In this document: positions 248 to 20,900 of the stretch, piece after piece
Position numbering within the stretch: the first letter of the stretch is position 1
Layout of the letters: every line of letters starts with the position of its first letter
Source of the DNA: Chitinophagales bacterium
GTDB taxonomy: Bacteria > Bacteroidota > Bacteroidia > Chitinophagales > JABDMM01
NCBI GenBank assembly: GCA_013001465.1
Contig: JABDMM010000123.1
Span: 8,845-72,844, forward strand
DNA: 64,000 nucleotides
Direction: 5' to 3'
Position numbers and translations under genes: made by a program
The notes under the pieces: model-generated
Databases searched by the model: none
What the model was told of the DNA's origin: nothing
The model's input: the letters and a program-made list of their open reading frames with translations, nothing else

Positions 248-333
248 ATAGCTCCAACCCAATTTCAATTCCACATTAATTCATAGAGCATAGCTCTTAT
301 ATGATGAGCATTTACAGTAAATTCGCCTCCTGA

Positions 334-1104
334 ATGGTGAAAAGTCTTAGTCCAATAATTGAACTCATTGAAGAGGAATACGAGATCCCTCACTTAGGCG
401 CAACGAGAAAGATCTCAGCGCTCCTGCCATATGATTATTATGATCATACTAAGAGGCTACCTGTATTATATCTGCAGGACGGGCAGAATCTGTTCAATCC
501 TCAAGCGCCATTTGGTGATTGGGCTATCGATAAATCTCTGCACAGACTTGCAGCAAAAGGTTTGAAAGATGTGATCATCGTCGCGATCGATCATGGCGAA
601 CGGGAACGTATAAAAGAATACCTTCCTTACTTCCATGGTAGATTGGGTAAAGGTAAAGGAACACACTACATTAGATTCCTGAAAGAGAAACTGATCCCGT
701 ATATAAATAAGCGCTATCGAACCATGACTGATTATGCAAGCACAGGGATCGGAGGGAGTTCAATGGGCGGACTCATAAGTTTATATGCCGGACTAACCGA
801 ACCGTCTGTTTTCGGTAAGACGATGATATTCTCTCCTAGTCTGTGGATCTCAAACCGTATTTATTACAACGCGAAAGTATTTGACACGCTTCCCAATTCA
901 AGAATGTATTTGTATGCCGGGGGAGAAGAAAGCCTCACTCATCTTCCGAATGTTAAAAAACTGGAGTCGATCTTAAAGTCACACACTGCGAAGAATTCAA
1001 ATTTTCATCTAAAGGTTTCAGTAAACATGCGAGGTGTTCATGCTGAAGAATATTGGAGAAGAGAATTTCCAAAAGCTCTTAAGTGGCTGTTTTTTGATAA
1101 ATAA
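334..1104 (+). CDS. alpha/beta-hydrolase, 'putative esterase' family
   Basis: 256-aa ORF. LPVLYLQDGQNLF block typical of the esterase-D/siderophore-esterase-like family. Nucleophile elbow GGSSMGG (GxSxG). Confidence 0.7.
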   Translation: MVKSLSPIIELIEEEYEIPHLGATRKISALLPYDYYDHTKRLPVLYLQDGQNLFNPQAPFGDWAIDKSLHRLAAKGLKDVIIVAIDHGERERIKEYLPYFHGRLGKGKGTHYIRFLKEKLIPYINKRYRTMTDYASTGIGGSSMGGLISLYAGLTEPSVFGKTMIFSPSLWISNRIYYNAKVFDTLPNSRMYLYAGGEESLTHLPNVKKLESILKSHTAKNSNFHLKVSVNMRGVHAEEYWRREFPKALKWLFFDK

Positions 1105-1111
1105 AGATAAA

Positions 1112-2524
1112 ATGAATTACAAACTTTCCAATTCTCTCGATACTGAGGTAGATATTTTGTTAAGTTTTAATAAGGATGAGGTTGATACTGTAATGATCAA
1201 AGATCTAACAGGTCTGCCTGACTTTCAGTTTAATGGTGAGCTCGATGAAAACCTGATGCTTTTTACCGATTCAGGAAACAAAGTATTTCTGTTAGGACTT
1301 GGGGAAAAGAACGAGAAATGCAAACTGCGTTCTGCATTTCAAAAGTTTGCATTCAGACACTTTAAATACTTGCAGAAAGACTTGCAGGTAGATCTGAGAA
1401 ATTTTGGTGATGATCAGATCATAGATGCTCTAACCGGTCTAACAATGGCAAGCTACCAGATGGGCGTTTTTAAAACTGAAAAGAAGGACATACCAGAAGT
1501 AAAATATCATTTTCTTTCCGAAAGATCTATCGACGATCAAATTTCTGAAGGAGTTGCTGTCGGAGAAAGTATTAATAACATTCGTGCACTGATAGATGCA
1601 CCCCCAAATCAGAAGACTCCGGAGTTTTTAGCGTCACACGTAACAGCATCTGCAAAGAAACATGGTTATAAATGTGAGGTAAAAGAAAAGGCAACTTTAG
1701 AGGATGAGGGATTTGGTGCGCTGCTTGCTGTTGGCGCTGGTAGCAAAAATGAACCCAGGCTGATCAAGATGACCTACACTCCAAAGGAAGGAGCAGATAT
1801 AGATATAGCGCTAGTAGGTAAAGGAATCACGTTCGATTCCGGTGGATTATCGATAAAACCATCTCAAAACCTTCATTATTTAAAGAGTGATATGGGAGGA
1901 GCAGCTGCGGTAATTGGTGCTGTTGAGTTAGTTGCTAAACTGAAATTGAAGGTCAACGTGATCGGAATTGTCGCTTCGGCAGAAAACGCTGTAGATGCAG
2001 AAAGTTTCAGACCTGGTGATGTTATAAAATCCTATTCGGGGAAGACGATTGAAATTATAGATACCGATGCAGAGGGAAGATTAGTGCTTGCGGATGGACT
2101 CAGTTATGTTATCAAGAACTACAAACCCAAAAGAGTGATCGACCTCGCAACGCTTACCGGAAGTGTGGTCCGCACGTTAGCCTATTCTGCTGCCGGGATG
2201 TTCACGAACAATGAAGAAATGGCTAATTCTTTAAAGCAGATCGGTGAGAACATCGATGAAAAAGTTTGGCAACTTCCTCTATATAAAGAATTCGAGAGCG
2301 ATCTGCACTCGGATCTAGCGGATATTCGTAATTTCAGCAATAAGCCAATAGCTGGAGCGATCACTGCTGCTAAGTTTTTGGAGGCATTTACAGAAGATCA
2401 CGATAGCTGGCTTCATTTAGATATTGCCGGAGTGTCTTTTGGGGATTCTGAATTTTCTAAAATGAAAAGTGCAAGTGGATATGGAGTTCGCTTGTTGGTT
2501 CAGTATATTAAAACATTAAGCTAA
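1112..2524 (+). CDS. pepA: leucyl aminopeptidase (peptidase M17)
   Basis: M17 hallmarks VGKGITFDSGG and DTDAEGRLVLAD. The ORF-track start at 1034 overlaps the upstream gene. The ATG at 1112 (MNYKLSN...) lies 7 nt after that gene's stop and is preferred. Confidence 0.9.
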   Translation: MNYKLSNSLDTEVDILLSFNKDEVDTVMIKDLTGLPDFQFNGELDENLMLFTDSGNKVFLLGLGEKNEKCKLRSAFQKFAFRHFKYLQKDLQVDLRNFGDDQIIDALTGLTMASYQMGVFKTEKKDIPEVKYHFLSERSIDDQISEGVAVGESINNIRALIDAPPNQKTPEFLASHVTASAKKHGYKCEVKEKATLEDEGFGALLAVGAGSKNEPRLIKMTYTPKEGADIDIALVGKGITFDSGGLSIKPSQNLHYLKSDMGGAAAVIGAVELVAKLKLKVNVIGIVASAENAVDAESFRPGDVIKSYSGKTIEIIDTDAEGRLVLADGLSYVIKNYKPKRVIDLATLTGSVVRTLAYSAAGMFTNNEEMANSLKQIGENIDEKVWQLPLYKEFESDLHSDLADIRNFSNKPIAGAITAAKFLEAFTEDHDSWLHLDIAGVSFGDSEFSKMKSASGYGVRLLVQYIKTLS

Positions 2525-2529
2525 AGATC

Positions 2530-3732
2530 ATGGAAAAGAGACCACTAAACTTTCTATGTATTTCAACCTATTTCAAAGGCGAGGACTTTTTGCGATCGTG
2601 TAAAGCTGAAGGAAACAGGGTTTTCTTGCTGACATTAAAAAGTCTCGAAAATGAGGACTGGCCCTGGGACTCAATCGACGAAACATTATATGTCGATAAA
2701 TGGGTGGATGAACATGTTCAGAATGGAATTGCTTATAAATTCCGCTCAATAAAATTTGATCGCTTTGTAGCCTTGGATGATTTCGACGTTGAAAAGGCAG
2801 CCGGCTTGCGAGAGCATTTCAGAATGCCTGGCATGGGTCAGACCACCGGAAGATTTTTTCGTGATAAACTTGCAATGAGAGTAAAAGCTCATGAAGAAGG
2901 AATAAAAGTACCCCCATTTTCCTCGCTCTTTCATGATGAAGATATAAATTCTTTTGCTGATAGCGTGCAAGCACCATGGTTGGTTAAACCAAGACATGAA
3001 GCTTCTGCGCATGGAATAAAAAAGGTTCATAGCAAGGACGATTTATGGCAACTGATGCATGAACTGGGTGATGATCGTCACAAATTTTTAGTAGAAAAAT
3101 TCGCTCCGGGAGATGTCTATCATGTAGACAGTATTAATTACAATGGAGATGTGGTTTTTGCGAGAGTAAGTAAATATTTAGATACACCTTATGAAGTAGC
3201 ACATGGAGGAGGAATTTTCAGGTCTGTAACTATAGAGTTAAATTCCCAGGAAGAGCAGGATCTAAGAATGACGAATCGATCTGTCATGAAAGCTTTTGGT
3301 ATGCAATTCGGTGCATCGCATACAGAGTTTATAAGATCGCGCCAGACAGGAGAAATATTTTTTCTTGAAACTTCATCCAGAGTTGGAGGAGCAAACCTTT
3401 CCGAGATGGTTGAGGCTGCCACAGGGCTTAATCTTTGGGCTGAATGGGCTAAAGTTGAATCTGTTACTTTTCGAAATGAAAAATATACTGTGCCGAAGCT
3501 GTACAAAGATACATATGCCGGAATAGTAGTGAGTCTAAGTAGGTATGAATATCAGGATCTATCAACATTCACCGATCCGGAGATCGTTTGGCGCATGCAT
3601 AAACCATGGCATATAGGATTGATCGTTTCTGCCAGTTCACAGGAAAGGGTAGAAGAGCTTCTCAATAAGTATACAAGGCGTATTGCTGAAGAGTATCATG
3701 CCAGCGCACCGCCTCCGGAGAAATCAGTTTAG
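2530..3732 (+). CDS. ATP-grasp domain carboxylate-amine ligase (L-amino-acid-ligase-like)
   Basis: 400 aa. PWLVKPRHEASAHGIKKV (ATP-binding Lys region). C-terminal SHTEFIRSRQTGEIFFLETSSRVGGA (E..E/N..R.GG metal/ATP motif of ATP-grasp_4-type enzymes). Starts 5 nt after the pepA stop. Confidence 0.7.
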   Translation: MEKRPLNFLCISTYFKGEDFLRSCKAEGNRVFLLTLKSLENEDWPWDSIDETLYVDKWVDEHVQNGIAYKFRSIKFDRFVALDDFDVEKAAGLREHFRMPGMGQTTGRFFRDKLAMRVKAHEEGIKVPPFSSLFHDEDINSFADSVQAPWLVKPRHEASAHGIKKVHSKDDLWQLMHELGDDRHKFLVEKFAPGDVYHVDSINYNGDVVFARVSKYLDTPYEVAHGGGIFRSVTIELNSQEEQDLRMTNRSVMKAFGMQFGASHTEFIRSRQTGEIFFLETSSRVGGANLSEMVEAATGLNLWAEWAKVESVTFRNEKYTVPKLYKDTYAGIVVSLSRYEYQDLSTFTDPEIVWRMHKPWHIGLIVSASSQERVEELLNKYTRRIAEEYHASAPPPEKSV

Positions 3733-4931
3733 CCTTCATTTTCGAAGAAACCGATACTTCCACCAACCCACACTTTATCTTTATTGTATCTCACTCCAAC
3801 CATTGCACCTTTGCTAAGGCGCATAAGGTTACTCACTACTCGTGTGGTCTTATCTCTGGTATTGTGAAGTGCCATCATTCTGATCTCACCTTTCGCAGGA
3901 ACATCTGGTGTTTCAACAATAGGTTGATAATTTACTTTTTGCTGCAGAATGTAGTTTTCTCTATCTTGAATATCATCGAGTATTTTCTGGTTAATATCAA
4001 GGACAACACCAGACCCTGCAAAGGAATAGAGTGGCTTTAAGACATAGTTTTCCAGATCATCGGGATAGTCCGTGAGCTTATTGAGAAATTGTGAGTGAGG
4101 AACATACTTATTCTGGATAAGTGGCAACGTGTATTTGCTGATCCTGAAGAACCAGTTAGGATGGCCAACCCACTCAACATCTACTTCATCCTTGAAATAG
4201 AACTCTCGTTTAATATCATCACGTTGATTAAGTTCATCAAAGATCACCCGATTATAAATCTTTAGGATCTTTACTTCGGTGCCATTTTCGTCGATATAAA
4301 ATAATTCTTTTCCTCTTTTTTTCATTTGGCTGATGCAAAGTACTTTTAATCCAAGTTCACGCTCAGCGCATAGAAAATCAATTCGTGTAGTTTGCTTTTC
4401 AGGCTCCACTTCGAGAAGAACAACCTGTTTGGGATCTGTATCACCAATAATTTCTGCCCGAAGCATTTCAATGTATTCCTCTCTCTTCAAACCATCCAGA
4501 TGCACCGAAAATCTATCAGGTATATCGTAGTGTTTGATATACATTTGCGATAGAAAGTCCTGATAGAAATAAAGAGAAGGGAAACCCTGGAGCTCTATGA
4601 GTTTTGGAATTGGGTCGCCATTTTCATCTAAACAGATACCAAAATCCAATTGAATGAATCTTGAAGTATAATCTTCTGCAGGAACATGAAGCGTTGGGTG
4701 TTTTATCGCTTCTTGAGTAAGGACTTTAAAATCAGGTTTGACGACGATATCAAGAATATCATTACAAGCTTCTGTTAGTCTTTCCTTCAGCAGTTGGGGT
4801 ATAAATACCGGGGTTTCAGCAATCCTGAACGGAGGCAAGTAATTGAATTGTTGCTCGATATCTTTCAGGAAGGTCTGGTATTTTTCCTGTGTAAAGTGCT
4901 CGTTAAATGCTTTGCGGTATGCGTGGATCAT
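3729..4931 (-). CDS. circularly permuted / glutathionylspermidine-synthetase-like ATP-grasp amidoligase
   Basis: 400 aa. RFIQLDFGICLDENGDPIPKLIELQGFPS (R-x-D...G...lE-x-N/Q..P block, normally C-terminal in ATP-grasp enzymes) lies in the N-terminal third. YVLKPLYSFAGSGVVL (Lys plus Gly-rich loop) lies in the C-terminal third. The start overlaps the upstream stop (TGATG). Confidence 0.55.
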   Translation of the reverse strand: MIHAYRKAFNEHFTQEKYQTFLKDIEQQFNYLPPFRIAETPVFIPQLLKERLTEACNDILDIVVKPDFKVLTQEAIKHPTLHVPAEDYTSRFIQLDFGICLDENGDPIPKLIELQGFPSLYFYQDFLSQMYIKHYDIPDRFSVHLDGLKREEYIEMLRAEIIGDTDPKQVVLLEVEPEKQTTRIDFLCAERELGLKVLCISQMKKRGKELFYIDENGTEVKILKIYNRVIFDELNQRDDIKREFYFKDEVDVEWVGHPNWFFRISKYTLPLIQNKYVPHSQFLNKLTDYPDDLENYVLKPLYSFAGSGVVLDINQKILDDIQDRENYILQQKVNYQPIVETPDVPAKGEIRMMALHNTRDKTTRVVSNLMRLSKGAMVGVRYNKDKVWVGGSIGFFENEG

Positions 4932-5749
4932 CAGTTATTAATATACTCTTCTTTGTTTAATGAAGCTAAAGCTTTTGAAATAAAACTCGGAAGTATAACA
5001 CTATGAGTAAGTTTTATTTTATCAGGATCGCTCAAATGAAGCATCATATCCTCGTATTTGTTCTCATCGAAATTACTGATCACCTTGTCTCGATTTTCTT
5101 TTTTGCTGAAGTGTGACTTCATACCTATTGGATCTGCTTCAGGATGAAATTGCGTCCCTACAAATTCATCAGAGAACCTGACAGCCATTATCGCTCTTTC
5201 ATATTCTACATGGGTTCTAATTTTTTCCAGGCTTAATATGCTTGCACCATGTTCTTCAAAAACCTTTAGCCTCGGTTGCACGAGTTGCCAATCTCTGGAA
5301 TCGACAGCATAGTAAGGATTGTCCAGACCATTTAAAATTGGGTCGGTGAGACCAGCTGCAGTTTTGTGAACAGGGTAGATCCCAAAAGAAGTTCTTTTTC
5401 GTTTGGTGATCGATCCAAGTTGAAAATGTTCACATGCCATCTGGAAGGAATAACAAATAAAGAAGATATGCTTCTTATTCCCTCCTTTAATTTGATTTAG
5501 CTGCCATGCAGAATCTATAAGATTGAAATAACTCTCTGTCCAGGAACCTGCTTCGTGAGGATTTCCAGGACCTCCACTCGAAATAAAAATATCATATGAA
5601 AGATCAGGAATTTCATGTTTAGATCGAACATCAAACACTTTCCAGTCCAAACGATCTTCAAACTCGGTGGCAATATCCCTGATACAACGCAATCCCTGAT
5701 TAGGAATGCTTTTGTTCATGTCTAGGATAGCCAGTTTTACTTTTTTCAT
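4931..5749 (-). CDS. class-I glutamine amidotransferase-like protein (probable amidase/peptidase)
   Basis: 272 aa. Nucleophile context HIFFICYSFQ (Cys) and GTQFHPE (His-x-Glu) give an intact GATase1 triad. No fused synthase domain. Confidence 0.75.
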   Translation of the reverse strand: MKKVKLAILDMNKSIPNQGLRCIRDIATEFEDRLDWKVFDVRSKHEIPDLSYDIFISSGGPGNPHEAGSWTESYFNLIDSAWQLNQIKGGNKKHIFFICYSFQMACEHFQLGSITKRKRTSFGIYPVHKTAAGLTDPILNGLDNPYYAVDSRDWQLVQPRLKVFEEHGASILSLEKIRTHVEYERAIMAVRFSDEFVGTQFHPEADPIGMKSHFSKKENRDKVISNFDENKYEDMMLHLSDPDKIKLTHSVILPSFISKALASLNKEEYINN

Positions 5750-5752
5750 AAT

Positions 5753-6898
5753 TTAACTCAGTCCTTCAGTTGTCTGCTCGATTATATAGTCGACTACTTT
5801 CTTCAAATCGTTGGTCTCATTATAGACAGCTAATTGTCTATCGGCTCCTGTACCGTTTTTCAGCATGTCTTTAATTTTATTCATTTCATTTCTGGATCCA
5901 AGATCATCCACGACCTCATCGACAAACTCAAGCATTTCCTCGATCAGGATTTTTATATCAACCTCAGCCTCCTGACCAAAATCTATCAACTTACCATCAA
6001 GTCCGTACCGCCCAGCCCTCCATTTATTTTCGTTTATCAGTGCCCTGTGATATAGAATGAAATTTAAGTTTTGAGTTCTTAAGAGATAAAGTTTAGCCAC
6101 AAGTGCCTGGATCATTGCAGTGAGGCAAACAGTCTCATCGACTGTCAACGGTATATCGCAAATCCGGATCTCAACTGTTGGAAAGAATGGATGAACTCTG
6201 ATATCCCACCAGATCTTTTTGGCATTGTCGATACATTTCGTCTTGATCAGCAATTCAATGTAACTCTGATATTCTGCAACAGATTGAAAAACATCGGGAA
6301 TCCCGGTACGTGGGAATTTATCGAAAACTTTAGAACGGAAAGATTTGAACCCGGTGTTTCTGCCTTCCCAGAATGGTGAGTTGCTGGACAAAGCGTATAA
6401 ATGAGGTAGAAAATATCGCATGGAATTTGCGATATGCAACGCCATTGCTTTATCCTGAATCCCAACATGAACGTGTAAACCAAAGATCAGATTTGACCGG
6501 GCCGTATCCTGCATCTCCTGAATGATCTCATCATAGCGAGGATTTGGAGTAATAAGTTGTTTTTCCCATTCTGAGAATGGATGAGTACTTGCTGCACCTA
6601 TGCGGAAACCGAGATCGGAAGAGATCTCACAAATGGTTTTGCGAAGCTGAGAAATTTCCTGTCTTGCTTCTACGATATCAGAACAGATCTTTGTTCCAAC
6701 CTCAACCACAGCCTGATGCATTTCTGCTTTTACTTGCTCCTCTAGGTGCTTTTCAGCAACTTCAACAATTTTCTGTTCATGGGAGATCAGTTCACGGGAT
6801 TCAGGGTCAATTACCTGGTATTCTTCTTCGATTCCTAGGGTAAACTGCATTTTAAAAGATTTAGATGATGCAAAATCCGGACTCATCCGGATAAACAT
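5753..6898 (-). CDS. carboxylate-amine ligase, GCS2 / YbdK family (glutamate-cysteine-ligase-like)
   Basis: 381 aa. The N-terminal FTLGIEEEYQVIDP matches the YbdK-type TLGxExE signature. Size is typical. The start overlaps the upstream stop (TAATG at 6896-6900). Confidence 0.85.
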   Translation of the reverse strand: MFIRMSPDFASSKSFKMQFTLGIEEEYQVIDPESRELISHEQKIVEVAEKHLEEQVKAEMHQAVVEVGTKICSDIVEARQEISQLRKTICEISSDLGFRIGAASTHPFSEWEKQLITPNPRYDEIIQEMQDTARSNLIFGLHVHVGIQDKAMALHIANSMRYFLPHLYALSSNSPFWEGRNTGFKSFRSKVFDKFPRTGIPDVFQSVAEYQSYIELLIKTKCIDNAKKIWWDIRVHPFFPTVEIRICDIPLTVDETVCLTAMIQALVAKLYLLRTQNLNFILYHRALINENKWRAGRYGLDGKLIDFGQEAEVDIKILIEEMLEFVDEVVDDLGSRNEMNKIKDMLKNGTGADRQLAVYNETNDLKKVVDYIIEQTTEGLS

Positions 6899-7872
6899 TA
6901 TGCGTTTTGAGCAACCTTTAAATTTTTACTCGCAACAACCTGGTCTTTTATAAAACTTCCCCAAGTCAAGTTCATCTGACCATCTTTATGAGCCATCGCT
7001 CTTTCAATTGCTAAATTTGCTGCGTTTTCAACGATCCAGTCAAAATTTTCCTGGCCAACTGAGTGGTAATCTGCATCTGGTGCGGGATTACAGAAATCTA
7101 TAGCATATGGAATACCATCTCTTATTGCAAATTCAACTGTATTAAAATCATAACCTAATGCTATGTTAAGCTTTATACAGTATTCTTCCACTTTGCTCAG
7201 CAATTCCTTCGCGACAGGACCGCCATCTCTGACATATCTCAAGTGATGAGGATTGCGGGGTTCATATTGCATGATATGGACATTGTTCTGGCCTAAAACA
7301 TAGCAGCGAAAGTATTCTGTAAACTGGATTTCTTCCTGTAACATCATTACCAACTGTTCTGTTTCTGCATGTTTAGTAAACAGATCCTCTCTGTTCTCTA
7401 CTCTGTAAACACTTTTCCAGCCACCACCAGAATGTGGTTTCATATATGCAGGAAAACCGATATACTCAAACATTTCATCCCAACCAAATGGCAATTTCAG
7501 GTTTCTGAAGGAGTTCTCATCTGTATCATCTGGTCTGTGAAAAGATGGTAAGAGAACAGTTTTAGGAACAGGTACACCAACTTTTTCTGAAAGGGCATTA
7601 TTGAAAAATTTCTCATCTGCGCTCCACCAGAATGGATTGTTTATCACAGCTGTTCCGCAAATTGCTGCATTTTTTAGAAAAGATCTGTAAAAGGGAACGT
7701 CCTGTGAGATACGATCAATGATAACCGCATAATCGATTGGCCGGGCTTGTTGAACAATATCAATACCGACAGGTTCAGCTACGATACCATCGATTTTTTT
7801 CTCATTTATCCTGTGTACAAATGCTTCAGGAAATGTAGTTTCTTGTCCGAATAAAATTCCAATTTTCTTCAT
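6898..7872 (-). CDS. ATP-grasp enzyme (RimK / glutathione-synthetase-like)
   Basis: 324 aa. FPAYMKPHSGGGWKSVYRV (Lys plus Gly-rich loop). C-terminal FNTVEFAIRDGIPYAIDFCN (E...D-x-N-type Mg/ATP site). Confidence 0.7.
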   Translation of the reverse strand: MKKIGILFGQETTFPEAFVHRINEKKIDGIVAEPVGIDIVQQARPIDYAVIIDRISQDVPFYRSFLKNAAICGTAVINNPFWWSADEKFFNNALSEKVGVPVPKTVLLPSFHRPDDTDENSFRNLKLPFGWDEMFEYIGFPAYMKPHSGGGWKSVYRVENREDLFTKHAETEQLVMMLQEEIQFTEYFRCYVLGQNNVHIMQYEPRNPHHLRYVRDGGPVAKELLSKVEEYCIKLNIALGYDFNTVEFAIRDGIPYAIDFCNPAPDADYHSVGQENFDWIVENAANLAIERAMAHKDGQMNLTWGSFIKDQVVASKNLKVAQNA

Positions 7873-7891
7873 AACGTTAAAATTTTAGATA

Positions 7892-8596
7892 CTAGAGTGT
7901 CGACAAATAATTTGGGAACATATCTCTCCAAATCGGCCAGTCATGTTTGGCCCAGCGTTTAAGGTCGAACCAGTACGGTATATTCTTCTTTGTAAGTATA
8001 TCCGCCATATCGCGATTTGCATCAAGGCATATATCCCATTCACCTACTCCCAAAGTAATCTTCATATCCCATAATTCTGGATTTTGATTCCCGGGTAGGT
8101 ATTCTACAGGATTATTAAAATAAACATTTTCATCGTGGTAACCGTCTAAAAATGAACTTATATCGAAAGATCCACTCATACTAAACATATGGCTCACTTT
8201 ATCGGGATTTTTAAAGGCAAAGTTTGCTGCGAGATAACCGCCAAAACTAGGTCCTGCAACTGCAACTTTGGAAATTCCCTTTTCGTGACATATTGCATTC
8301 ACCAATTCTTCTCTTACAAAGTTATCATACCAGATATGATTCTGCACTTTTTCTGCAGGATGAATTTCTTTGTTATACCAACTCATATCGTTGATACTGT
8401 CTGGACAATAGATCTGGACTAGTCCATTATCTAAAAACCACTTGGCAGAACTGATCAGGTGGAAATCTCTGCATTCATAATATCTTCCCATCGTGGTAGG
8501 AAAAAGAATGACCGGATAACCTGAATGCCCGAATACAAGCATTTCTATATCCTTGTTTAACGTTGGCGAATGCCACTTATGGTAGTCTTCTTTCAA
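7892..8596 (-). CDS. alpha/beta-hydrolase, 'putative esterase' family
   Basis: 234 aa. Nucleophile elbow AGPSFGG (GxSxG) and overall esterase-family layout. It is the first gene of the minus-strand ligase unit. Confidence 0.7.
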   Translation of the reverse strand: MKEDYHKWHSPTLNKDIEMLVFGHSGYPVILFPTTMGRYYECRDFHLISSAKWFLDNGLVQIYCPDSINDMSWYNKEIHPAEKVQNHIWYDNFVREELVNAICHEKGISKVAVAGPSFGGYLAANFAFKNPDKVSHMFSMSGSFDISSFLDGYHDENVYFNNPVEYLPGNQNPELWDMKITLGVGEWDICLDANRDMADILTKKNIPYWFDLKRWAKHDWPIWRDMFPNYLSTL

Positions 8597-8697
8597 TTTT
8601 TCTATTTATTTAAAACGGAGCGCAAAATTACGGCATACTTTCATCATATAAAAGCATAGAGCAATCTGTTTTAAGAAAGGACAGAGTAGCATAATCA

Positions 8698-9348
8698 TCA
8701 GCAACCACAAAATTCTACCCCAACAACTTTCATGGTTTTTAAACGGTCTATAATTTCCATCAACACTTCGTGGTCATTGATGGAAGGTTTAATTGAGTTT
8801 TTGTATATCAGCTGTAATTCTTCTTCGATCGAAGAAGGTACCCCACCAGTTGAATAATTGTATAGTTCAATTCTACAACCTACTTTGTCCTGCGAAACTT
8901 TTATAGTTGTAAATGGTCGCGACAACCAGCTGCTGTCCTCAATGTTTATCATAGTAAGACAGTTTATATCATACGCTACAGTGGACCACACCTTGATCAT
9001 ACTTATCGGTTCGATTTTTGAAAATTCTAAAGTTTTAACGGAGTTAAAGTCTACTTTAAAAGGATGTATAGGTAGTCGCGAGATTGTTTTTATATTTTCA
9101 AAATCATAAATACGTGTATAGACCTGAAGTTCTGTTTGGCCTTTGTAAAGATTGTAAAGTGCAATTCTAAACGAATCGGGATTACCTAAATAGCGATTGA
9201 AATGATCTACCGGAAATTCAGAGTATATAAATGCTTTTTCTTCCTGTCCATCTTGTGTGTAGTTAAACTCAATTAACCAAATGCCACCAATGGCAAAAGT
9301 ATTTATTGAGAGAAATGTAAGCACACCATATATAAACAGGGCTCTCAT
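8698..9348 (-). CDS. hypothetical secreted/membrane-anchored protein
   Basis: 216-aa ORF with a hydrophobic N-terminus (MRALFIYGVLTFLSINTFAIGGIWLI). I recognise no motif. Confidence 0.45.
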   Translation of the reverse strand: MRALFIYGVLTFLSINTFAIGGIWLIEFNYTQDGQEEKAFIYSEFPVDHFNRYLGNPDSFRIALYNLYKGQTELQVYTRIYDFENIKTISRLPIHPFKVDFNSVKTLEFSKIEPISMIKVWSTVAYDINCLTMINIEDSSWLSRPFTTIKVSQDKVGCRIELYNYSTGGVPSSIEEELQLIYKNSIKPSINDHEVLMEIIDRLKTMKVVGVEFCGC

Positions 9349-9364
9349 GATCGGTCGATCAGAT

Positions 9365-9715
9365 TTATTTCATTTGAGACAATTGCACATAAAAATCCCC
9401 TGGTACTTTGAAGTAAGTTACCCAACCATAACCATGATCTTCGATCTCTCCTTTGAACTCAACACCCTTTGATCTAAGATCGCTTACTGTCTCCTGAATA
9501 TTATCACACATGAATGAGATATCGTGTGTTCCTGAAGGGGAGCCCTGCTGACCGCTTTCATCTGAAGGATGAACACCCATATCTGCTGCAGGCAGATTAA
9601 AAATTAGCCAACCTTCGCCGGCATCGAAATGAGAGAAGCCTAATTTATCTTTAACAAAGTCCCTTAATTCTTCGGCTTTAGCTGTATAGAACATCGTATG
9701 AACTCCGGTAATCAT
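9365..9715 (-). CDS. VOC / glyoxalase-family protein
   Basis: 116 aa. Size and pattern fit (MITGVHTMFYTAKAEELRDFV..., HPSDE, HDISFMCDNI, YGWVTYFKVPGDFYVQLSQ) for the single-domain glyoxalase/bleomycin-resistance fold. Confidence 0.7.
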   Translation of the reverse strand: MITGVHTMFYTAKAEELRDFVKDKLGFSHFDAGEGWLIFNLPAADMGVHPSDESGQQGSPSGTHDISFMCDNIQETVSDLRSKGVEFKGEIEDHGYGWVTYFKVPGDFYVQLSQMK

Positions 9716-9769
9716 AAGCAGTTACATTTTTATGAATTTAATGATTCTTATATATACTATTGAAATTAC

Positions 9770-11080
9770 TTATTCCTCCTCAAAATATTCCTTGCGCAGA
9801 GATTTGATCTCCTGAATATAATAGCCGTCATCGACAGAATTTTCTGCTGCCTTCAGCAATCTTCCTACATGACGCGTTATAGCAATTTTTTGCTCTTCAG
9901 TTTCTGCGAGTTTATTTATAGTCACGAAACTTTGCATCAACTTGGAAAGTACGGCCGGGCTTCCAACAGCAAAATATCGAATCTGATTAAAGGAGGCATC
10001 CATCATGCTTTCGAAAGAAGAAGGAGAAGTGAGCACCCTTATTTCCTGATCATCATCAAGTCTGATCGATTTTGGAAAAGAAACTTTAGTAAGGTATCCC
10101 ATACTCGAAGTAAGCTTATCGATACAAGCTATAGCCGTATACGGATCATTCACACCCGGAGATAAAGCTCGCGCAGCGATCTCAACTAATTGGTGAATAG
10201 CAAACTCAGCATCCTGATGTGGAGTTCTGATATCTCCATAAACAAAGGCATCATGCAAATTTTCTATCGCTTCGTTTTCTACTGGTTTAGATGAGTATAC
10301 CTTTAAAAGTTGAATTCCTTCTACCAGATAGTGTCCCGGTCTGTGATTAAGCTCTACCACCACTTCATTCTTTTTTGCTGAACGAATTAGGGATTCATTA
10401 TCGATAGATTGCAGGTATCCGTCTTTTTTGCAGTTTAGTGAATATTGGTACTCCAGGTTAGTGAGTAGAGCATTTCGATCAAGATCATTTTCATCCTTCC
10501 CTTCTCCCATTTTCACCGGGAATAATCGGCGAATGCCTCTTGACAATTCACTCCCAACGTCAGAAATTACTCGATCTGCTTGTATGCTGATAGAAATATG
10601 ATGTATAAATATTATCAGAAGTATAATATTCCCCAAGGCCAGAAATATCGCCAGTAGAACTGAGAAGTTAGGAGTGAAAGTGAAGGATTCTGATCTAACC
10701 GTTTTTAGTATGATGATGCAGTATGCAAAAGTCGATACATAAGTTCCCAGAACCACCTGATTCAATCGATCATACATGAAGTTTCTAAGCAGTCTGGATC
10801 CAAACTGAGATGACGCTAATGTAAGTGCAACCAGTGTTATCGAAAAAACAGTACCTGCAACGCCTATCATAGCAGCTGCTATGATTGAAAGAACACTCCT
10901 GGCAGAATCTACACTATCGAGAAAAAAGTATCTTATAAAGCCCTCCGGCTGATAGTTAAAAGTCGTATCCAGATATATCATCAACACTGCCGCACCCTGA
11001 CTCAGCCCAATGATCACTATTGGCAGGAACCAAAAGCTGCCTTTTAACAGGAACCAGAAGTATTTTATCTTGCTTTTCAA
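9770..11080 (-). CDS. DUF2254-like integral membrane protein
   Basis: 436 aa. N-terminal half has about 5 TM helices (begins FWFLLKGSFWFLPIVIIGL). Soluble C-terminal half. The layout matches the DUF2254 family as I recall it. Confidence 0.55.
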   Translation of the reverse strand: MKSKIKYFWFLLKGSFWFLPIVIIGLSQGAAVLMIYLDTTFNYQPEGFIRYFFLDSVDSARSVLSIIAAAMIGVAGTVFSITLVALTLASSQFGSRLLRNFMYDRLNQVVLGTYVSTFAYCIIILKTVRSESFTFTPNFSVLLAIFLALGNIILLIIFIHHISISIQADRVISDVGSELSRGIRRLFPVKMGEGKDENDLDRNALLTNLEYQYSLNCKKDGYLQSIDNESLIRSAKKNEVVVELNHRPGHYLVEGIQLLKVYSSKPVENEAIENLHDAFVYGDIRTPHQDAEFAIHQLVEIAARALSPGVNDPYTAIACIDKLTSSMGYLTKVSFPKSIRLDDDQEIRVLTSPSSFESMMDASFNQIRYFAVGSPAVLSKLMQSFVTINKLAETEEQKIAITRHVGRLLKAAENSVDDGYYIQEIKSLRKEYFEEE

Positions 11081-11241
11081 GTTTTACGGATTGAATTCAG
11101 AGGAAAAGATAAGGAATTCTATAGTTCTTCTATTATAGCCATATTGATCTTGAATCTTAATTTGGATTTTACTGATTCTTACTCTACTACAAAGGATGTT
11201 TCCCTTAGATAACCGCTAGATCAAATAACACATCAATATGT

Positions 11242-12519
11242 CTATTTTTTATTTATTAGTTTGAATATTATAGTAGCAAGGAGCCCAACGGCTGCGAATG
11301 AAGCTATCAAAGCAAACACGTGTTGATGTCCGACTTCACCCGGGGAACGATCCAAAAGAAATCCCATAAGTGGTCCCATAAATATATCCGGAGTATAACC
11401 GATAAAAGAGACTATACCAATTGCACTTCCTGTATATAACAGCGGTACTTTTGCTTCTTCGAACAATACAAAATAGACTCCTCTCAACGCATGAATTCCG
11501 ATGCTTGTTGTTACAACCACTGCAACGATCGACACATATACACCACTTCCAAGCAAGCCAAATGTGATAAAAGTGCTTCCAAAAATAATGATCATGAAGC
11601 CCAATAAGAGTACTGTGGATGATTGGATGCGATCTCCGAGAAAACCTGCTGATACCGCTGCAAAAGGCCTTACCCATAATGAGATCGAGGCTATTTTAGC
11701 CGCTTCTACATCATCATAATTAAATGTGTCATACACGTATAGTGAAAAATCATCTGTTCCTTTGTATGCAACATAAGCACACACAACTATTACAGCTTGG
11801 AGCCAGATAGAAGGTCTGCTGAGACCATCTTTTAAGCCTTCGAGAGATATTCTCTTTATCGAACCCACATCATGCGATGCTGGTGTATCCGGAACCAGAA
11901 AGAATACGATAATTGCAATTAATATGACCAGAAAACTGATCATTAGGATAACAGCTCTGAGTGCATATGTTTTCTCTGTTATATTAGCAAAAGCGGGATC
12001 TGGAAGAAGCGATGAAAACACAAAAACGGCAATTGATGCCATCAATGCAGCCATGAGTCCCCTGCCACCATCTAACAAACCGTAAGCTTTCCCTTGACTG
12101 CTGGCACCACCCCAAACTCTTGTTGCTTTGATCAAGGCAGCCCAAAAAAGCAGAATGGTAGTCAAGCCCCAGAAAGCATATAAAACTACAAGGAGATTGA
12201 GATCCGGAACAGAAGCAAAGACAAATCCTCCAATTGCAGTAGACACAAGAGCAAATGACATCAGTTTTCTTGCGGAAAAAATATCTGCTAACGGACCTCC
12301 AAGAAAATATGAACCCATAGCTACCGTTCCATATGCCGAGAATGCCAAGCCAAGCTGAAGATTGTTGATCTCAAAAACATCAAGGATGGTTGGTCTAAAA
12401 ACCCTGACAAGTACAAATGGTAAAAGAAATATACCTTCCCCGGCTGCAACCATCGAGATCATTATGAAAACCTTATGCATCTTTCCGTTTGTGCCTTGTA
12501 AAGGTTGCTTGTCTATCAA
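11242..12519 (-). CDS. MFS transporter
   Basis: 425 aa with about 12 predicted TM segments in a 6+6 layout and a central loop. The true start may be the internal Met (MHKVFIM...). Confidence 0.75.
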   Translation of the reverse strand: MIDKQPLQGTNGKMHKVFIMISMVAAGEGIFLLPFVLVRVFRPTILDVFEINNLQLGLAFSAYGTVAMGSYFLGGPLADIFSARKLMSFALVSTAIGGFVFASVPDLNLLVVLYAFWGLTTILLFWAALIKATRVWGGASSQGKAYGLLDGGRGLMAALMASIAVFVFSSLLPDPAFANITEKTYALRAVILMISFLVILIAIIVFFLVPDTPASHDVGSIKRISLEGLKDGLSRPSIWLQAVIVVCAYVAYKGTDDFSLYVYDTFNYDDVEAAKIASISLWVRPFAAVSAGFLGDRIQSSTVLLLGFMIIIFGSTFITFGLLGSGVYVSIVAVVVTTSIGIHALRGVYFVLFEEAKVPLLYTGSAIGIVSFIGYTPDIFMGPLMGFLLDRSPGEVGHQHVFALIASFAAVGLLATIIFKLINKK

Positions 12520-13686: not shown

Positions 13687-15294
13687 ATGAGTTTTTCAAC
13701 AATAGATCTGATCATCTTTAGCGGCTGGATCATTTTTATGATGGGGTTCGGGATATGGATCTCCAGGTCAAAGCAGGAAACAACACAGGATTATTTTCTT
13801 GCTTCCAAGGCATTACCCTGGTGGGCAGTTGGTGGTTCTTTGATCGCATCGAATATTTCAGCCGAGCAATTTATTGGAATGTCAGGTTCGGGTTATGTCG
13901 TTGGTTTTGCCATTGCTACATATGAACTAATGGCAGCCTTAACTCTATTGATAGTAGCTAAATTTTTTCTTCCGGTGTTTTTAAAAAGAGGAATTTATAC
14001 TATGCCTCAATTCCTCGAAGATAGATTTGATGGCAGAGTTAGAACAGGTTTAGCAATTTTTTGGGTTCTTTTATTCGTCTTTGTAAATATTACCTCAGTA
14101 CTTTATTTAGGAGGCCTTGCTCTTCAAACGATCATGGGTATCCCTCTTATTTACGGAGTTATAGGACTTGCGTTGTTTGCATCCACATTCTCGATTTTCG
14201 GTGGCCTTAAAGCAGTAGTCTGGACTGATGTTGTTCAGGTTGTTGTGCTGATATTTGGTGGTCTCCTTGCTAGCGTCATGGTTTTGAATGCGCTGGGTGG
14301 TAGTTTCCTTGGGGGGCTACAAACTCTCCTCACCGAAGCTCCTGAGAAATTTGATATGATCCTGGATAAAGCGAATCCGGAATATATGAATCTACCTGGG
14401 ATCAGTGTTTTAATAGGTGGTATGTGGATCGCGAATATCTACTATTGGGGGAATAATCAATATATTATTCAAAGAACACTCGCAGCGAAAAGTTTAAAAG
14501 AGGCTCAGAATGGTGCTGCATTCGCTGCTTTTTTAAAGATCTTGTTACCCCTAATTGTCGTCATACCGGGTATAGCAGCATTTGTCTTGCAAGCAGATAT
14601 AGGGAAACCGGATGAGGCTTATCCTTGGGTGCTTAACAACTACGTTGGCGTTGGTTTCAAAGGGTTGGCTTTTGCTGCCCTCATTGCCGCTATCGGTTCT
14701 TCTCTCAGTTCGATGGTAAATAGTGCTTCGACCATTTTTACCTTGGATATTTACCGACCGTTCTTCCTCAGCACCAATTCTAAAAAATCTCTAGATGCTC
14801 ATGAGCACGACAGTGCATCTTTATCTATGGAAGAAGAGTCTAAATTGGTGAAGATCGGAAGAGTGGCTGCCGGTGTTTCATTACTTCTTGGAGTTATAGT
14901 GGCACCGCTTCTTGGAAATCTGGATCAGGCATTTCAATATATTCAGGAGTATACGGGATTTATCAGTCCGGGTGTAGTTGCTGTCTTCTTATTGGGATTA
15001 TTTTGGAAGAAAACTTCAGCGAACGCTGCATTGGTTGCGGTTATTCTTGCAATTCCATTATCCGTCGGTTTTAAGTTGCTGACTCCTCAAATTCCATTTT
15101 TGGACAGAATGGGGCTTAGTTTCTTGATCTTATGTGGAATAATGATCGCTATTTCTCTTATAGAAAATAAGAGTAGTAATGATGCCAAAGGTATTGTCTT
15201 CCCTGATGGTTTGTTTAAGACAGGCAGCGTGTTTAATATATCAGCACTGATCGTTTGCGGCATGCTTGCCGTTATTTATGCCCTGTTCTGGTAG
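13687..15294 (+). CDS. sodium:solute symporter (SSS/SGLT family)
   Basis: 535 aa, about 13-14 TM. GGSLIASNISAEQFIGMSGSGY matches the SGLT-family signature region. Confidence 0.85.
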   Translation: MSFSTIDLIIFSGWIIFMMGFGIWISRSKQETTQDYFLASKALPWWAVGGSLIASNISAEQFIGMSGSGYVVGFAIATYELMAALTLLIVAKFFLPVFLKRGIYTMPQFLEDRFDGRVRTGLAIFWVLLFVFVNITSVLYLGGLALQTIMGIPLIYGVIGLALFASTFSIFGGLKAVVWTDVVQVVVLIFGGLLASVMVLNALGGSFLGGLQTLLTEAPEKFDMILDKANPEYMNLPGISVLIGGMWIANIYYWGNNQYIIQRTLAAKSLKEAQNGAAFAAFLKILLPLIVVIPGIAAFVLQADIGKPDEAYPWVLNNYVGVGFKGLAFAALIAAIGSSLSSMVNSASTIFTLDIYRPFFLSTNSKKSLDAHEHDSASLSMEEESKLVKIGRVAAGVSLLLGVIVAPLLGNLDQAFQYIQEYTGFISPGVVAVFLLGLFWKKTSANAALVAVILAIPLSVGFKLLTPQIPFLDRMGLSFLILCGIMIAISLIENKSSNDAKGIVFPDGLFKTGSVFNISALIVCGMLAVIYALFW

Positions 15295-17913: not shown

Positions 17914-17928
17914 TCAATTCAATATGGG

Positions 17929-20900
17929 TCATCTCAATAAAACCATTTTCCCAATTCCCTTCTTAAAGTATTTGTCAGCTTCGGTATTTATATGCTCTAT
18001 TTCTTCATTTGCCATCCTGGTAACCACCCTGTAGAAATAAACACCATTTCCTAGAGGATCTCCATACTGATCTGTTCCATCCCAGGTATAGTCGGTAATG
18101 TTTCGACCGATATGAAGATTGCCGATTTCCGATTGAGTGATCTCTTTAATCACTTTGCCTTTAACAGTCATGATCTGAATTTTAAAGTATTCAGGTAGCT
18201 CGCTTCCGGTCAAAGTAAAAACAAATTGAGTAGAGGTCGTAAATGGATTGGGATAGTTGAGAACATTAGATATCCCGGCTGTGGTGACTATTTCGAATGA
18301 GATTTTAAAAGGTGTCGCTCCACCAGAACGATTGCCACTCTTGTCTTTGTCCCTTACCACAAGTTGATAAATACCATCTTCAAAGAACTCTGGCCTGAGT
18401 TCTACTTTAGCAGAGTTATTACTTCCTCCTCCTGAAGCATCTGCTGGTATGAAATCCATTATCGAGCTTTTATGGAATATCTTTTTTGCACTTCCATCAG
18501 GATAGTTTAACTCTACTTCTATTACAGAAGTATCATCTAATGCAAGATAGCTGTTATCGTCTTTTAGTGTTATCAAAATAAATGGCTTGGCAGAAACGAT
18601 ATCGCCATCGAGAATGTGCTCTCCATCAAAAGTGACATCCAAAAGAGGATTTGTATTATCTCCAAATACCTTATAATTCAAAATTCCGATATTATTGAAA
18701 TGGTATTTTTCTACTTGGTCATTATCCGGGTTCATTTCGATAGTTAAAATGTTATCTCCAATGCCTTCATTATAAGTTTCCAATTTATAAGTCAAATGAA
18801 GCGTATCGTTTGCACTTAATCCCTGGTATCTCACAAAACTTGTATCGAACGATTGTGAAGCATCCAGATGTGAAAATTTGACCAAAACCGGATCGATGTC
18901 CAGATTACTTATGTTTTGAGCTCCAATTTTGATAGCAAGTGATTCACCCAATTGAAGTGTGTCGTTATCAAATAAGTACTTTACTGCTGGATTAATAGCA
19001 ATATCAGGAGCTTCTTCAAACATGACTCTCCAATATTGCAATTGTGATGGGGTACGATTGATATCATCCAATGCATTGAATTGTAATCGTAAGTAAGGAT
19101 AAGTAGCGGCATCTATAAAACTAAGCGTGGTATCCGTTGCATTCTTTATCCTTGATAGTAAAATTTCGGAGTTATCGTTTGATTTAGGTACACCGTAAAT
19201 GTCGATGCTGATATTATCTGTATTTCCTGTTTCTACCGAAGTACTTTTATAAAGTAGGCGATCCCAGTTTTTAGCCGGACCAATTCTATCTGATCTAAAA
19301 AATCCCTCCTTCCAGCTTCCGGTAAAAACAATATTTTCACTGATGGGTGTTGAATAAGAGCTTCCTAATTTTTCTACATGGGGATAGGAGCTGTTTCCTT
19401 TTTGTGTGAAGAAAATGTATGGTGCGGCTGCAAATCCACCTTTACTTAATGGAAGAACAGACATCGCTCCAATTCCTAACAATTTATTTACAAGTGAATT
19501 GTCCCATGATGTATACGGTGGCATGTTATGGCTATACATGAGAATATAACTTCCGGATGGTATTGAATCGATGAAATTGCTGATTACCTGACTCCATGGA
19601 ATACCCAGATCAGGATGAGTTCCAGTGGTGTTAAAATTGAAACCGAATTGCTCAAAGTATTGGAAACTACAATGAAAGTTACCATATGGACCAAAATCTG
19701 ATCCCCCTTGATTGATGCTGGACCAAGGTAAACCTGAATTTTCATCGATCACTGCAAAGGTCAGTCCGTTTAAACCGCCGCATCCTCCCATTCTCCAGCG
19801 ATGCATTTTCACTCCATTCAACAACCATCCCAGGTCGTCATCAGCAAGGTTTCCACCAATACCATTTCCAACTCCGGTAGTAACATCGATTTCTTTTACA
19901 TCATCGACATAATGAAAATTCCTGTCCAGAGAGTCGATATAAATATTGGAGTATGCGTTCTCTTCAAACTGATAATAGTGAGATTGATTCCAGCCTCCAG
20001 TGCTGCCCGGAATATAAACAAAGGAGCTTTCATGCCAGTTTATAGCTGATGGATCGCTGCTGTCTTTTGCAACTCTCCAATAATAAACTGTCGAGTCATA
20101 GTCTAGTAAGTTGACATTCCATTCGATCACACCACCTGGATGAAATACTCTTGCTTCAGTTTTGAAACTGCTGTTAAAGAGTTTAGATGTATCCAATTGC
20201 ATGATATACCATCTGCTATTAGAAAATGGATTTGATGTGCTGGACTTTAGAATGATATTTTTAGATCCTGTAATCCCATAATTATATGGACTCACAGGGA
20301 ATACATCCTCTGCTATTATATTTAAACTGATCTCTTCCGGAAAGTAGGAGTTTGGGATAGAATTGTTCATTTCTGAAAGTTCGCCGATCACTTCATCCGA
20401 AGCATCGATGGAAATTGAAAAGGTCTCGATCGAGTTGCTTGCTTCGTCGCCGTTTTGCTGTCCAGTGATCGTTGGTAATCTGAATCGAACAGTACTCTTG
20501 TATAAAGGTGCTTCGATCCGCTTGGTATAATTGAGCTGAGTACCGTCTTCTTTATTTCTGATCAGTCTTATATCAAAAGAATCCTTTACTGCTTTCCCCA
20601 GATTGTGAATATCCATTATAATATCGAATGAATCTAACACGGCACTCACCACTCGTGGTTCAAAGCGAACATGGTTTGGCTCGATAGCATAATCGGGATC
20701 CTCGTAGAAATTCAACTTCAATGCCGGATCACCATGAAGCGTCATTTCATGGGTCACCAGTTCTGTATATATATCTTGATTGGTAGCGTTGATTTCTGCA
20801 ATTGTTGACTGTATTATCTCACCCAATGGTCTCCCATACAGATCTTTTGACATGTTTTTGATAAACTTTTTTGCAAAAACATCCAGGCTTATTGAAATTG

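Follow-up and report, generated by a model that had tools for sequence, protein, structure and literature searches.

A two-module cluster of carboxylate-amine ligases and hydrolases in Bacteroidota, with a core shared by Acidobacteriota, as a candidate pathway for a small peptide-like product

Here we present an analysis of a cluster of eight genes, designated A to H, for predicted ATP-dependent ligases and hydrolases in a 64-kb stretch of DNA from a Chitinophagales bacterium (contig JABDMM010000123.1, positions 8,845 to 72,844). This whole stretch is referred to as the window, and coordinates are those of the window unless another locus is named. The cluster had been noticed in an earlier reading made from the letters and translations alone (the sequence-only reading), which described two tightly packed, convergent units encoding four ATP-dependent carboxylate-amine ligases of three architectures and four hydrolases, and guessed at a pathway for a peptide-like metabolite. 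All eight open reading frames (ORFs) were confirmed in the ORF list of the window, with coordinates and junctions exactly as first described, and the family and fold assignments given below agree with the count of ligases, architectures and hydrolases. The genes are as follows.

334..1104, plus strand: A, serine esterase of PF00756 (Pfam Esterase 8e-32), with a GGSSMGG nucleophile elbow.
1112..2524, plus strand: B, M17 leucyl aminopeptidase (Pfam Peptidase_M17 2e-114).
2530..3732, plus strand: C, predicted ATP-grasp ligase of the L-amino-acid-ligase type (Pfam ATP-grasp models; PDB matches).
3729..4931, minus strand: D, predicted circularly permuted ATP-grasp ligase with the glutathione synthetase/GspS/YgiC fold (predicted fold).
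4931..5749, minus strand: E, stand-alone Cys-His-Glu hydrolase of the class-I GATase fold (Pfam GATase 9e-10; triad).
5753..6898, minus strand: F, predicted GCS2/YbdK carboxylate-amine ligase (Pfam GCS2 1.6e-66; PRK13515).
6898..7872, minus strand: G, divergent ATP-grasp ligase, RimK/LysX-like below threshold (NCBIfam and profile matches).
7892..8596, minus strand: H, serine esterase of PF00756 (Pfam Esterase 1.7e-9), with an AGPSFGG nucleophile elbow.

The plus-strand genes are separated by 7 nt (A/B) and 5 nt (B/C). H is the first gene of the minus-strand operon, in which H and G are 19 nt apart and F and E 3 nt apart, with overlaps at the G/F (TAATG) and E/D (TGATG) junctions. C and D converge on a 4-nt stop-stop overlap, TTAG, at 3729-3732. 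Because the D/C junction leaves no space for a terminator, the transcripts of the two operons must overlap at their 3' ends. Spacers between D and C of merely 9-11 nt, measured between called ORFs, were seen in four other loci (loci named: L008, L011, L013, L015 and L017). Within both operons, neighbouring genes overlap or are 3-19 nt apart, too little for a precursor gene to fit in; the sequence-only reading, which saw neither a non-ribosomal peptide synthetase (NRPS) nor an obvious precursor peptide, is borne out, no conserved small ORF having been found in the 80 related loci described below. A ribosomally synthesised and post-translationally modified peptide of the graspetide or microviridin type was rejected on the same grounds.

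Profile hidden Markov models (HMMs) supported the earlier family placements of A, B, C, E, F and H; G was reached through sub-threshold matches only, and D by fold and by no HMM. Among the ligases, C scored at or above the gathering cut-offs of the Pfam models ATP-grasp_4 (29.5 bits, cut-off 27), Dala_Dala_lig_C and ATP-grasp (PF02222). Its PDB matches are L-amino-acid ligases, namely RizA (4wd3, 1.4e-20), 30vh (3e-8) and BL00235 (3vot, 7e-8), and domain and homology together place it as a predicted member of that group. F matched Pfam GCS2 with 225 bits (cut-off 21), the NCBIfam models PRK13515 with 547 bits (cut-off 371) and TIGR02050 with 313 bits (cut-off 176), and E. coli YbdK (1r8g) at 1e-49. 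It belongs to the GCS2/YbdK family, and a carboxylate-amine ligase activity is predicted.

The sequence-only reading had called D permuted or GspS-like. D, which is 100% identical to NCBI HKN92_10690, gave no Pfam or NCBIfam match at an E-value of 0.01 or below and fitted none of the sequence models GSH_synth_ATP, GSP_synth and CP_ATPgrasp; a profile of D compared with the PDB found YgiC alone, at an E-value of 1.2. Its AlphaFold model was confident (predicted local distance difference test, pLDDT, 87; predicted template-modelling score, pTM, 0.87). In Foldseek searches this model matched 1m0w, 3n6x, 8fbz, 7uk8, 2io7, 2vpm and 9cjn with E-values from 3e-14 to 1e-9, probability 1.0 and template-modelling (TM) scores of 0.46-0.62; the proteins found were the glutathione synthetases of yeast, human and soybean, Mfla_0391, YgiC/YjfC, GspS, trypanothione synthetase and the fungal E-64 ligase Cp1B. 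The next other fold appeared only at an E-value of 0.02. Judged by its model, D shares the permuted ATP-grasp fold of glutathione synthetase, GspS and YgiC, and the earlier description holds for the fold and fails for the sequence family.

At least 8000 close homologues of D were found, nearly all unnamed or annotated as 'hypothetical protein', and an exhaustive profile search gathered 269 representative clusters at an E-value of 1e-30 or below and 1466 at 1e-3 or below. By these searches D is a compact, distinct putative family with no Pfam or NCBIfam model of its own. One homologue, the 870-residue representative P0245, carries an N-terminal sodium:solute symporter (SSF) fusion, a single case which hints that D may act on an imported solute. 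Four divergent homologues of 549-586 residues from GC-rich organisms (P0270, P0276, P0312 and P0314) have N-termini resembling signal peptides and, in addition, about 150 residues of Ala-rich extension, which is odd for an ATP-dependent ligase.

G could be placed at superfamily level only, as a divergent ATP-grasp protein, because its matches to RimK, LysX, MptN, Ddl and biotin carboxylase are weak and consistent. The NCBIfam matches were all below threshold (RimK_fam 5e-9, LysX 2e-6, MptN 1.5e-4): G scored 35.9 bits against TIGR00768 (cut-off 143.4) and 27.2 bits against TIGR02144 (cut-off 275.6), so that the RimK/LysX family cut-offs of NCBIfam were not reached. Profile matches to Ddl and biotin carboxylase lay at about 4e-3. 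Orthologues of G carry a low-complexity C-terminal tail, rich in Lys, Ala, Pro and Thr, after a conserved NLTWG core. The tail is 9-270 residues long in 51 orthologues and reaches at least 20 residues in 22 of them, where Lys and Arg make up 26% of residues versus 5% for Asp and Glu (examples are L014:6321-8048, L011:1760-3187, L016:6522-7898, L060:7562-9013 and L082:5491-6477). An HhH-like domain terminates two of the tails (L016 and L060), and short basic tails are present in Acidobacteriota as well. Among the families of the cluster such a polycationic tail is limited to G, and that of the window's own G is short and weakly basic. The composition suggests that the tail binds a polyanion, which might be an acidic peptide or protein tail, nucleic acid, the ribosome or the membrane.

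Of the hydrolases, E matched Pfam GATase with 39 bits (cut-off 22.8), which places it in the class-I GATase fold, and gave no match to Pfam Peptidase_C26. The intact Cys/His/Glu triad noticed at the outset consists of Cys99, His202 and Glu204, invariant in two alignments of 19 and 23 sequences, and the protein has an SGGPGxP oxyanion strand, a Cys-x-Ser-x-Gln nucleophile motif and QFHPE. Its predicted model (pLDDT 85), which includes a 65-residue helical C-terminal extension of its own, matched SMU.1228c, Arabidopsis GGP1, MetA, DnfC and TM1158 at E-values of about 1e-12 and TM-scores of 0.6-0.69. The match to GGP1 had an E-value of 3e-12 and a TM-score up to 0.68, that to gamma-glutamyl hydrolase an E-value of about 1e-8. 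The stand-alone proteins GGP1, SMU.1228c and TM1158 scored TM 0.61-0.69 against the model, versus about 0.5 for docked glutaminase subunits.

B is an M17 peptidase (Peptidase_M17, 382 bits) containing the motifs DTDAEGRL and GKGITFDSGG; NCBIfam leucyl aminopeptidase models scored about 411 bits, slightly below their equivalog cut-offs. A and H are only 22% identical, though both belong to PF00756, and their PDB neighbours are feruloyl, IroE-like and FphF-like esterases. Among solved structures A comes closest to feruloyl and IroE-like siderophore esterases (1e-8 to 1e-5), and its NCBIfam matches are confined to GTNG_0744, enterochelin esterase and feruloyl esterase-type models. H matched Abhydrolase_1 (1e-6) besides Esterase, with weak generic NCBIfam matches and a weak PDB match to 6vh9, an 'esterase family protein'. 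Neither A nor H matched an S-formylglutathione hydrolase/esterase D equivalog in NCBIfam or the PDB.

To place the genes in context, we scanned species with one genome each and found at least 595 with a relative of D. The best 80 loci around D were examined with 10-kb flanks; they come from Flavobacteriaceae, Cryomorphaceae, Cytophagales (Algoriphagus, Belliella, Spirosoma, Larkinella), Saprospiraceae/Lewinellaceae and Chitinophagales. Positional counts include only loci whose contig spans the expected position, and co-occurrence refers to loci around D rather than to whole genomes. E adjoins D in 57 of 78 loci, and loci with E also contain G (47/50), F (25/50) and H (28/45), always in the order H-G-F-E-D. 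The genes are tightly packed, with median distances of 10 nt from F to E and 6 nt from E to D, the latter with 15 overlaps. Of 20 loci containing F, 14 have C and B, and 13 have A, no more than 10 kb from D and mostly in convergent orientation to it. Between D and C, the spacer varies from -4 to 6097 nt and in places contains unrelated genes; linkage between A-B-C and the core survives inversions and reshuffling in L018, L032, L053 and L063. C was near none of the 11 loci with D alone.

An unbiased clustering, in which each ORF of the 80 loci was compared with all others, gave the same picture. The families were counted in 80 (D), 56 (E), 53 (G), 39 (A/H), 28 (F), 25 (C) and 23 (B) loci; the next family, UppS, occurred in 11 loci and reflects lineage synteny. 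Only the eight cluster gene families are conserved around D, and the 80 loci revealed no conserved small ORF family, carrier or target gene, and no conserved transporter or oxidoreductase. Within Bacteroidota, identity is 60-81% for G and 59-82% for F. The VOC, DUF2254 and MFS genes at 9365-12519, which the sequence-only reading had offered as an extension for export, have a counterpart in 0 of the 80 loci and were ruled out as members. Because co-localisation across Bacteroidota is strong, the orthologues are not scattered; the idea of a single eight-gene unit had to be given up, as the modules separate. The cluster is two modules, H-G-F-E-D and A-B-C, and not one fixed eight-gene unit.

The D family extends to Acidobacteriota (Terriglobales, Sulfotelmatobacter) and to Ignavibacteria, where D stands alone in contexts of the Ignavibacteria type. 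In Acidobacteriota, the arrangement GCS2-x-D was found in all eight distinct contexts, and six of them have the full operon of Esterase, G-like, GCS2, x and D, with an orthologue of H at its head. Identities to the window proteins are 42-43% for H, 53-54% for G, 58-59% for F and 40-42% for D. The slot of E (x) is occupied in L082, L083 and L086-L094 by an M29/NicX-fold metalloenzyme of 335-363 residues, whose start overlaps the stop of the GCS2 gene. This protein matches Pfam Peptidase_M29 at 1e-12, and its sole solved sequence relative is the 2,5-dihydroxypyridine dioxygenase NicX, at 1e-5. From shared position alone, we infer that E and the M29-fold protein are functionally equivalent. In one lineage (L086/L087, 5089-6054) a genuine cysK, scoring 455 bits against TIGR01139 (cut-off 351), lies just upstream of GCS2-M29-D, and another Acidobacteriota finding is an operon with inserted ABM and SnoaL-type small-molecule tailoring genes.

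Genes for a homocysteine S-methyltransferase and a rubrerythrin also lie nearby in the cysK lineage. Downstream of D in L083, L086, L089 and L091/L092 there are a Ser/Thr protein kinase and a large PIG-L-domain protein (867-986 residues), followed in L083, L086 and L089 by an amino-acid permease and an MFS transporter; L091/L092 break off within the PIG-L gene. BshB, MshB and Mca belong to the PIG-L family of deacetylases/amidases. The recurrence of kinase and PIG-L genes may be simple lineage synteny.

In the window, the upstream regions of the two units have a 14-nt motif in common (CTYTTATATGATGA), of which the 64 kb contain two copies only, allowing at most one mismatch, where 0.11 would be expected by chance.

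294..307, plus strand: 14-nt motif CTCTTATATGATGA, 27 nt upstream of A, followed by the Bacteroidota -7-like box GTAAATTCG.
8641..8654, minus strand: second copy of the motif, CTTTTATATGATGA, upstream of H, followed by GTAATTTTG, -7 box TAnnTTTG.

The shared motif is a weak hint that A and H may be co-regulated. It is not conserved in the 80 related loci, and a role as conserved operator was rejected, the motif being specific within the window and absent from the other genomes. Additionally, an Rfam scan of the window and four loci gave no relevant riboswitch or cis-regulatory RNA, and PADLOC models, which would have pointed to anti-phage defence, matched none of the eight proteins.

We favour, with moderate confidence, a pathway, independent of NRPS and ribosome, in which the ATP-dependent ligases would build up a small peptide or pseudopeptide amide bond by amide bond and dedicated hydrolases would trim it or turn it over. 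The minus-strand operon H-G-F-E-D is its ancient core. GCS2 enzymes make gamma-glutamylcysteine (gamma-Glu-Cys) in haloarchaea, in cyanobacteria and in the ergothioneine pathway. From families, folds, conserved catalytic residues, operon structure and synteny, all directly supported, we infer substrates, order of steps and product as follows. F would join the gamma-carboxylate of glutamate to an amino acid, possibly cysteine. D would then activate the C-terminal carboxylate of this intermediate as an acyl phosphate and add an amino acid or amine, and G would add one or more residues, probably acidic, or work on an acidic acceptor. E, via a gamma-glutamyl thioester, could remove the N-terminal gamma-glutamyl group and release glutamate, either controlling the pool level, like the amidase of Gsp synthetase/amidase, or deprotecting the product, like EgtC. 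H may hydrolyse an ester or thioester form. The accessory module A-B-C would make and cleave a dipeptide, probably feeding or draining the same pool. The glutathione-like logic suggested by the sequence-only reading is the simplest order for these enzymes: F is of the YbdK/GCS2 family, D has eukaryotic glutathione synthetase as its best match, and E lies near GGP1. Relatives of D with the same fold, including the peptide-spermidine ligases YgiC/YjfC and the E-64 ligase Cp1B, extend a small acid or peptide (PMC12568646).

Several observations weigh against this scheme. In Saprospiraceae F is typically absent and G abuts E; because many of these clusters lack F and keep G-E-D, a gamma-glutamyl first step is not universal. 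E. coli YbdK itself was, in the 2004 work of Lehmann et al., reportedly a weak gamma-Glu-Cys ligase. In about a quarter of loci D stands alone among housekeeping genes (UppS, RsmE, flotillin, NUDIX and MscS), neighbours that are uninformative. A-B-C is not within 10 kb of D in five Cytophagales loci (L072, L073, L075, L079 and L080) and is near D in no Acidobacteriota context. Because its only solved relative is NicX, the Acidobacteriota M29-fold protein may not be a peptidase, and its identification as a plain aminopeptidase is weakened. The polycationic tail of G would suit a tripeptide less well than a partner that is a macromolecule or a polyanion, and a simple glutathione-like model does not explain it. 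Furthermore, the literature searched on the gene combination, on YbdK function and on Bacteroidota thiols yielded no study, product or phenotype of the cluster.

The version of the pathway that starts specifically from gamma-Glu-Cys is doubtful, and a thiol product is weakly supported, by the adjacency of cysK in one lineage; this adjacency is absent from the other seven Acidobacteriota contexts and counts among the adverse points. To our knowledge, Bacteroidota and Acidobacteriota are thought to lack glutathione. The genes bshA-C are widespread in Bacteroidetes and Acidobacteria, and bimane profiling of Polaribacter sp. MED152 showed N-methyl-bacillithiol as its main thiol (PMC6282198), which also speaks against a thiol made here. 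Because Polaribacter carries the cluster (loci L009 and L077) and has that main thiol, the cluster is unlikely to make the dominant thiol; it may make a minor or conditional one. A fuller form of the idea is that H-G-F-E-D makes a widespread new metabolite based on gamma-Glu-Cys, either a second low-molecular-weight thiol or the product of a gamma-Glu-Cys route from which glutamate is later removed, with G either lengthening it or using the basic tail to tether it to a partner that is acidic or polyanionic. We consider this unlikely.

The tail of G also underlies a different explanation, in which G, perhaps with F and D, would ligate amino acids onto a protein, acidic peptide or carrier, with E, B and the esterases erasing or trimming the modification. 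Ligases of this kind act on ribosomal protein S6 (RimK), on LysW (LysX) and on Pup (PafA). Basic tails, which typically bind polyanions, occur in G of both phyla, two of them with the HhH-like domain; the best family matches of G are RimK, LysX and MptN; and its unusual conservation, 60-81% in Bacteroidota and 53% to Acidobacteriota, is in keeping with a macromolecular partner. A precedent for joint control by ligase and protease is given by S6 glutamylation, with RimK and the Rim retropepsin-like protease (PMC11957791, PMC10092738). However, no small carrier or target gene is conserved around D in the 80 loci, G reaches 36 versus 143 bits on the RimK model, and the tail of the window's G is short and weakly basic. 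Moreover, all characterised relatives of D and C use small molecules, and the ABM and SnoaL-type genes within one Acidobacteriota operon are of the small-molecule tailoring class. We regard such tagging as an unlikely account of the cluster.

It is somewhat less plausible that H-G-F-E-D is one system and A-B-C a separate peptide-salvage unit that happens to abut it. The five Cytophagales loci, the Acidobacteriota contexts and a D-to-C spacer that varies widely and may hold unrelated genes speak for such a coincidence. Against it stand the adjacency of the two units in 14 of the 20 F-containing loci with enough flank, across several orders and despite inversion and reshuffling, and the lack of C near the D-alone loci. 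Also, both units have the 14-nt promoter-region motif that is unique to them in the 64 kb, and the Acidobacteriota core contains an M29-fold gene of an aminopeptidase family.

An improbable alternative makes the system a glutamine-dependent amidoligase, with E as a glutaminase channelling ammonia to D (or G) and a carboxamide product resembling glutathione amide or N-acetylglutaminylglutamine amide (NAGGN). Ammonia is channelled from CarA to CarB and from GatD to MurT, and the classic example of a class-I GATase working together with ATP-grasp domains is carbamoyl-phosphate synthetase. The SGGPGxP, Cys-x-Ser-x-Gln and QFHPE motifs of E are typical of class-I glutaminases, and E constantly adjoins D, often with translational coupling. 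The Acidobacteriota operons argue otherwise: F, G, H and D are orthologous there, and the slot of E holds an M29/NicX-fold protein unable to supply ammonia. The closest structures to E (GGP1, SMU.1228c, TM1158 and MetA) are stand-alone proteins rather than docked subunits, and its helical extension is a further point against this role.

Finally, gamma-glutamyl capture and catabolism of an imported amine or amino acid, in which ligases would trap and hydrolases release the compound by PuuA/PuuD logic, is most improbable: the pairing of F with E resembles that of PuuA with PuuD, the window (13687-15294) and L090 have SSF transporters close to the cluster, and P0245 joins D to a symporter, but the oxidoreductases needed in gamma-glutamyl catabolic routes are not conserved in the cluster, nor is any transporter in the 80 loci, and the transporter of the single P0245 fusion is 25% identical to the window SSF and not orthologous to it. 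The fusion was accordingly rejected as a clue to the cluster.

The surroundings of the cluster are those of an ordinary chromosome. The remaining window encodes cargo of the type IX secretion system (T9SS), TyrRS, PurA, RelA/SpoT, trigger factor and ClpX, and the G+C of the cluster (0.37-0.42) is the same as that of its flanks, so the cluster is no obvious island. Directly upstream of H on the same strand, an ORF of 216 residues with an N-terminal hydrophobic segment (8698-9348, minus strand) matched nothing in Pfam or NCBIfam and was without a counterpart in the 80 loci. At 15298-24119 and 36843-59295 the window also encodes several T9SS-sorted surface proteins of very large size, which are unrelated to the cluster. 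They include a 1694-residue Peptidase_C25 protein of the gingipain family beside a PorV-like gene, a CotH kinase with Por_Secre_tail, a 1154-residue CUB/PKD/CHU_C protein and a 1884-residue SprB-repeat protein.

The core operon is widespread in two major environmental phyla, with hundreds of reference species and thousands of metagenomic contigs carrying it, and its ligases are unusually conserved from one phylum to the other (58% identity for F, 53% for G). New here are the H-G-F-x-D operon of Acidobacteriota, the tails of G and the recognition of D as a family of its own. If the product were identified, the known biochemistry of marine and soil Bacteroidota and Acidobacteriota would gain a primary or stress metabolite or else a protein modification, and the YbdK-type GCS2 ligases would receive a first physiological role, none having been found in the literature searched. 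The system is directly testable, with eight soluble enzymes, cultured carriers and simple read-outs by ATPase assay and liquid chromatography-mass spectrometry.

Among known systems, glutathione synthesis and turnover offers the closest enzyme set. F belongs to the same family as the GCS2-type gamma-Glu-Cys ligases, D has yeast and human glutathione synthetase as its best structural matches, E resembles GGP1, B is of the M17 class, which cleaves Cys-Gly, and PF00756, the family of A and H, also includes S-formylglutathione hydrolase. The differences are that D matches no glutathione synthetase sequence model, that nothing in that system corresponds to the ligases G and C, that Saprospiraceae can dispense with F, that A and H miss the S-formylglutathione hydrolase models and that Polaribacter, which carries the cluster, uses N-methyl-bacillithiol as its main thiol. 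With GspS, trypanothione synthetase and YgiC/YjfC, D shares the predicted permuted ATP-grasp fold, and E, an amide hydrolase with a cysteine nucleophile, accompanies it as the CHAP amidase accompanies GspS; however, E is a separate protein of the GATase fold and not a fused CHAP domain, D gives no GSP_synth match, and nothing points to a polyamine substrate.

The ergothioneine pathway provides another parallel, in that its GCS2 ligase, EgtA, installs a gamma-glutamyl group which an amidotransferase-like hydrolase, EgtC, later removes. Here, too, a GCS2-family ligase and a hydrolase of glutamine-amidotransferase fold occur in one operon. The fold of EgtC is class II (Ntn) and that of E class I, and we know of no homologue of EgtB, EgtD or EgtE in the cluster. 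RimK, LysX and MptN are the best family matches of G, and binding of an acidic tail or cofactor would suit its basic tail, although G is far below the cut-offs and no S6 or LysW-like partner is encoded nearby. For C, the comparison is with RizA, BacD, BL00235 and TabS: it aligns to RizA over about 270 residues (1e-20) and has the same size, about 400 residues. The known L-amino-acid ligases are found in narrow antibiotic clusters, whereas C sits in a widely conserved chromosomal module beside an M17 aminopeptidase and an esterase.

Lastly, Iyer, Aravind and colleagues reportedly predicted, around 2009, amidoligase neighbourhoods that make peptide metabolites or tags, a theme with which the linkage of ATP-grasp and GCS2-type ligases seen here agrees in general terms. 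Their survey may already include a neighbourhood of this kind; the related Aravind-laboratory papers do not describe this one. By the tests run, the cluster is a member of none of the known systems, and it works like the ligase/amidase schemes of glutathione, glutathionylspermidine and ergothioneine.

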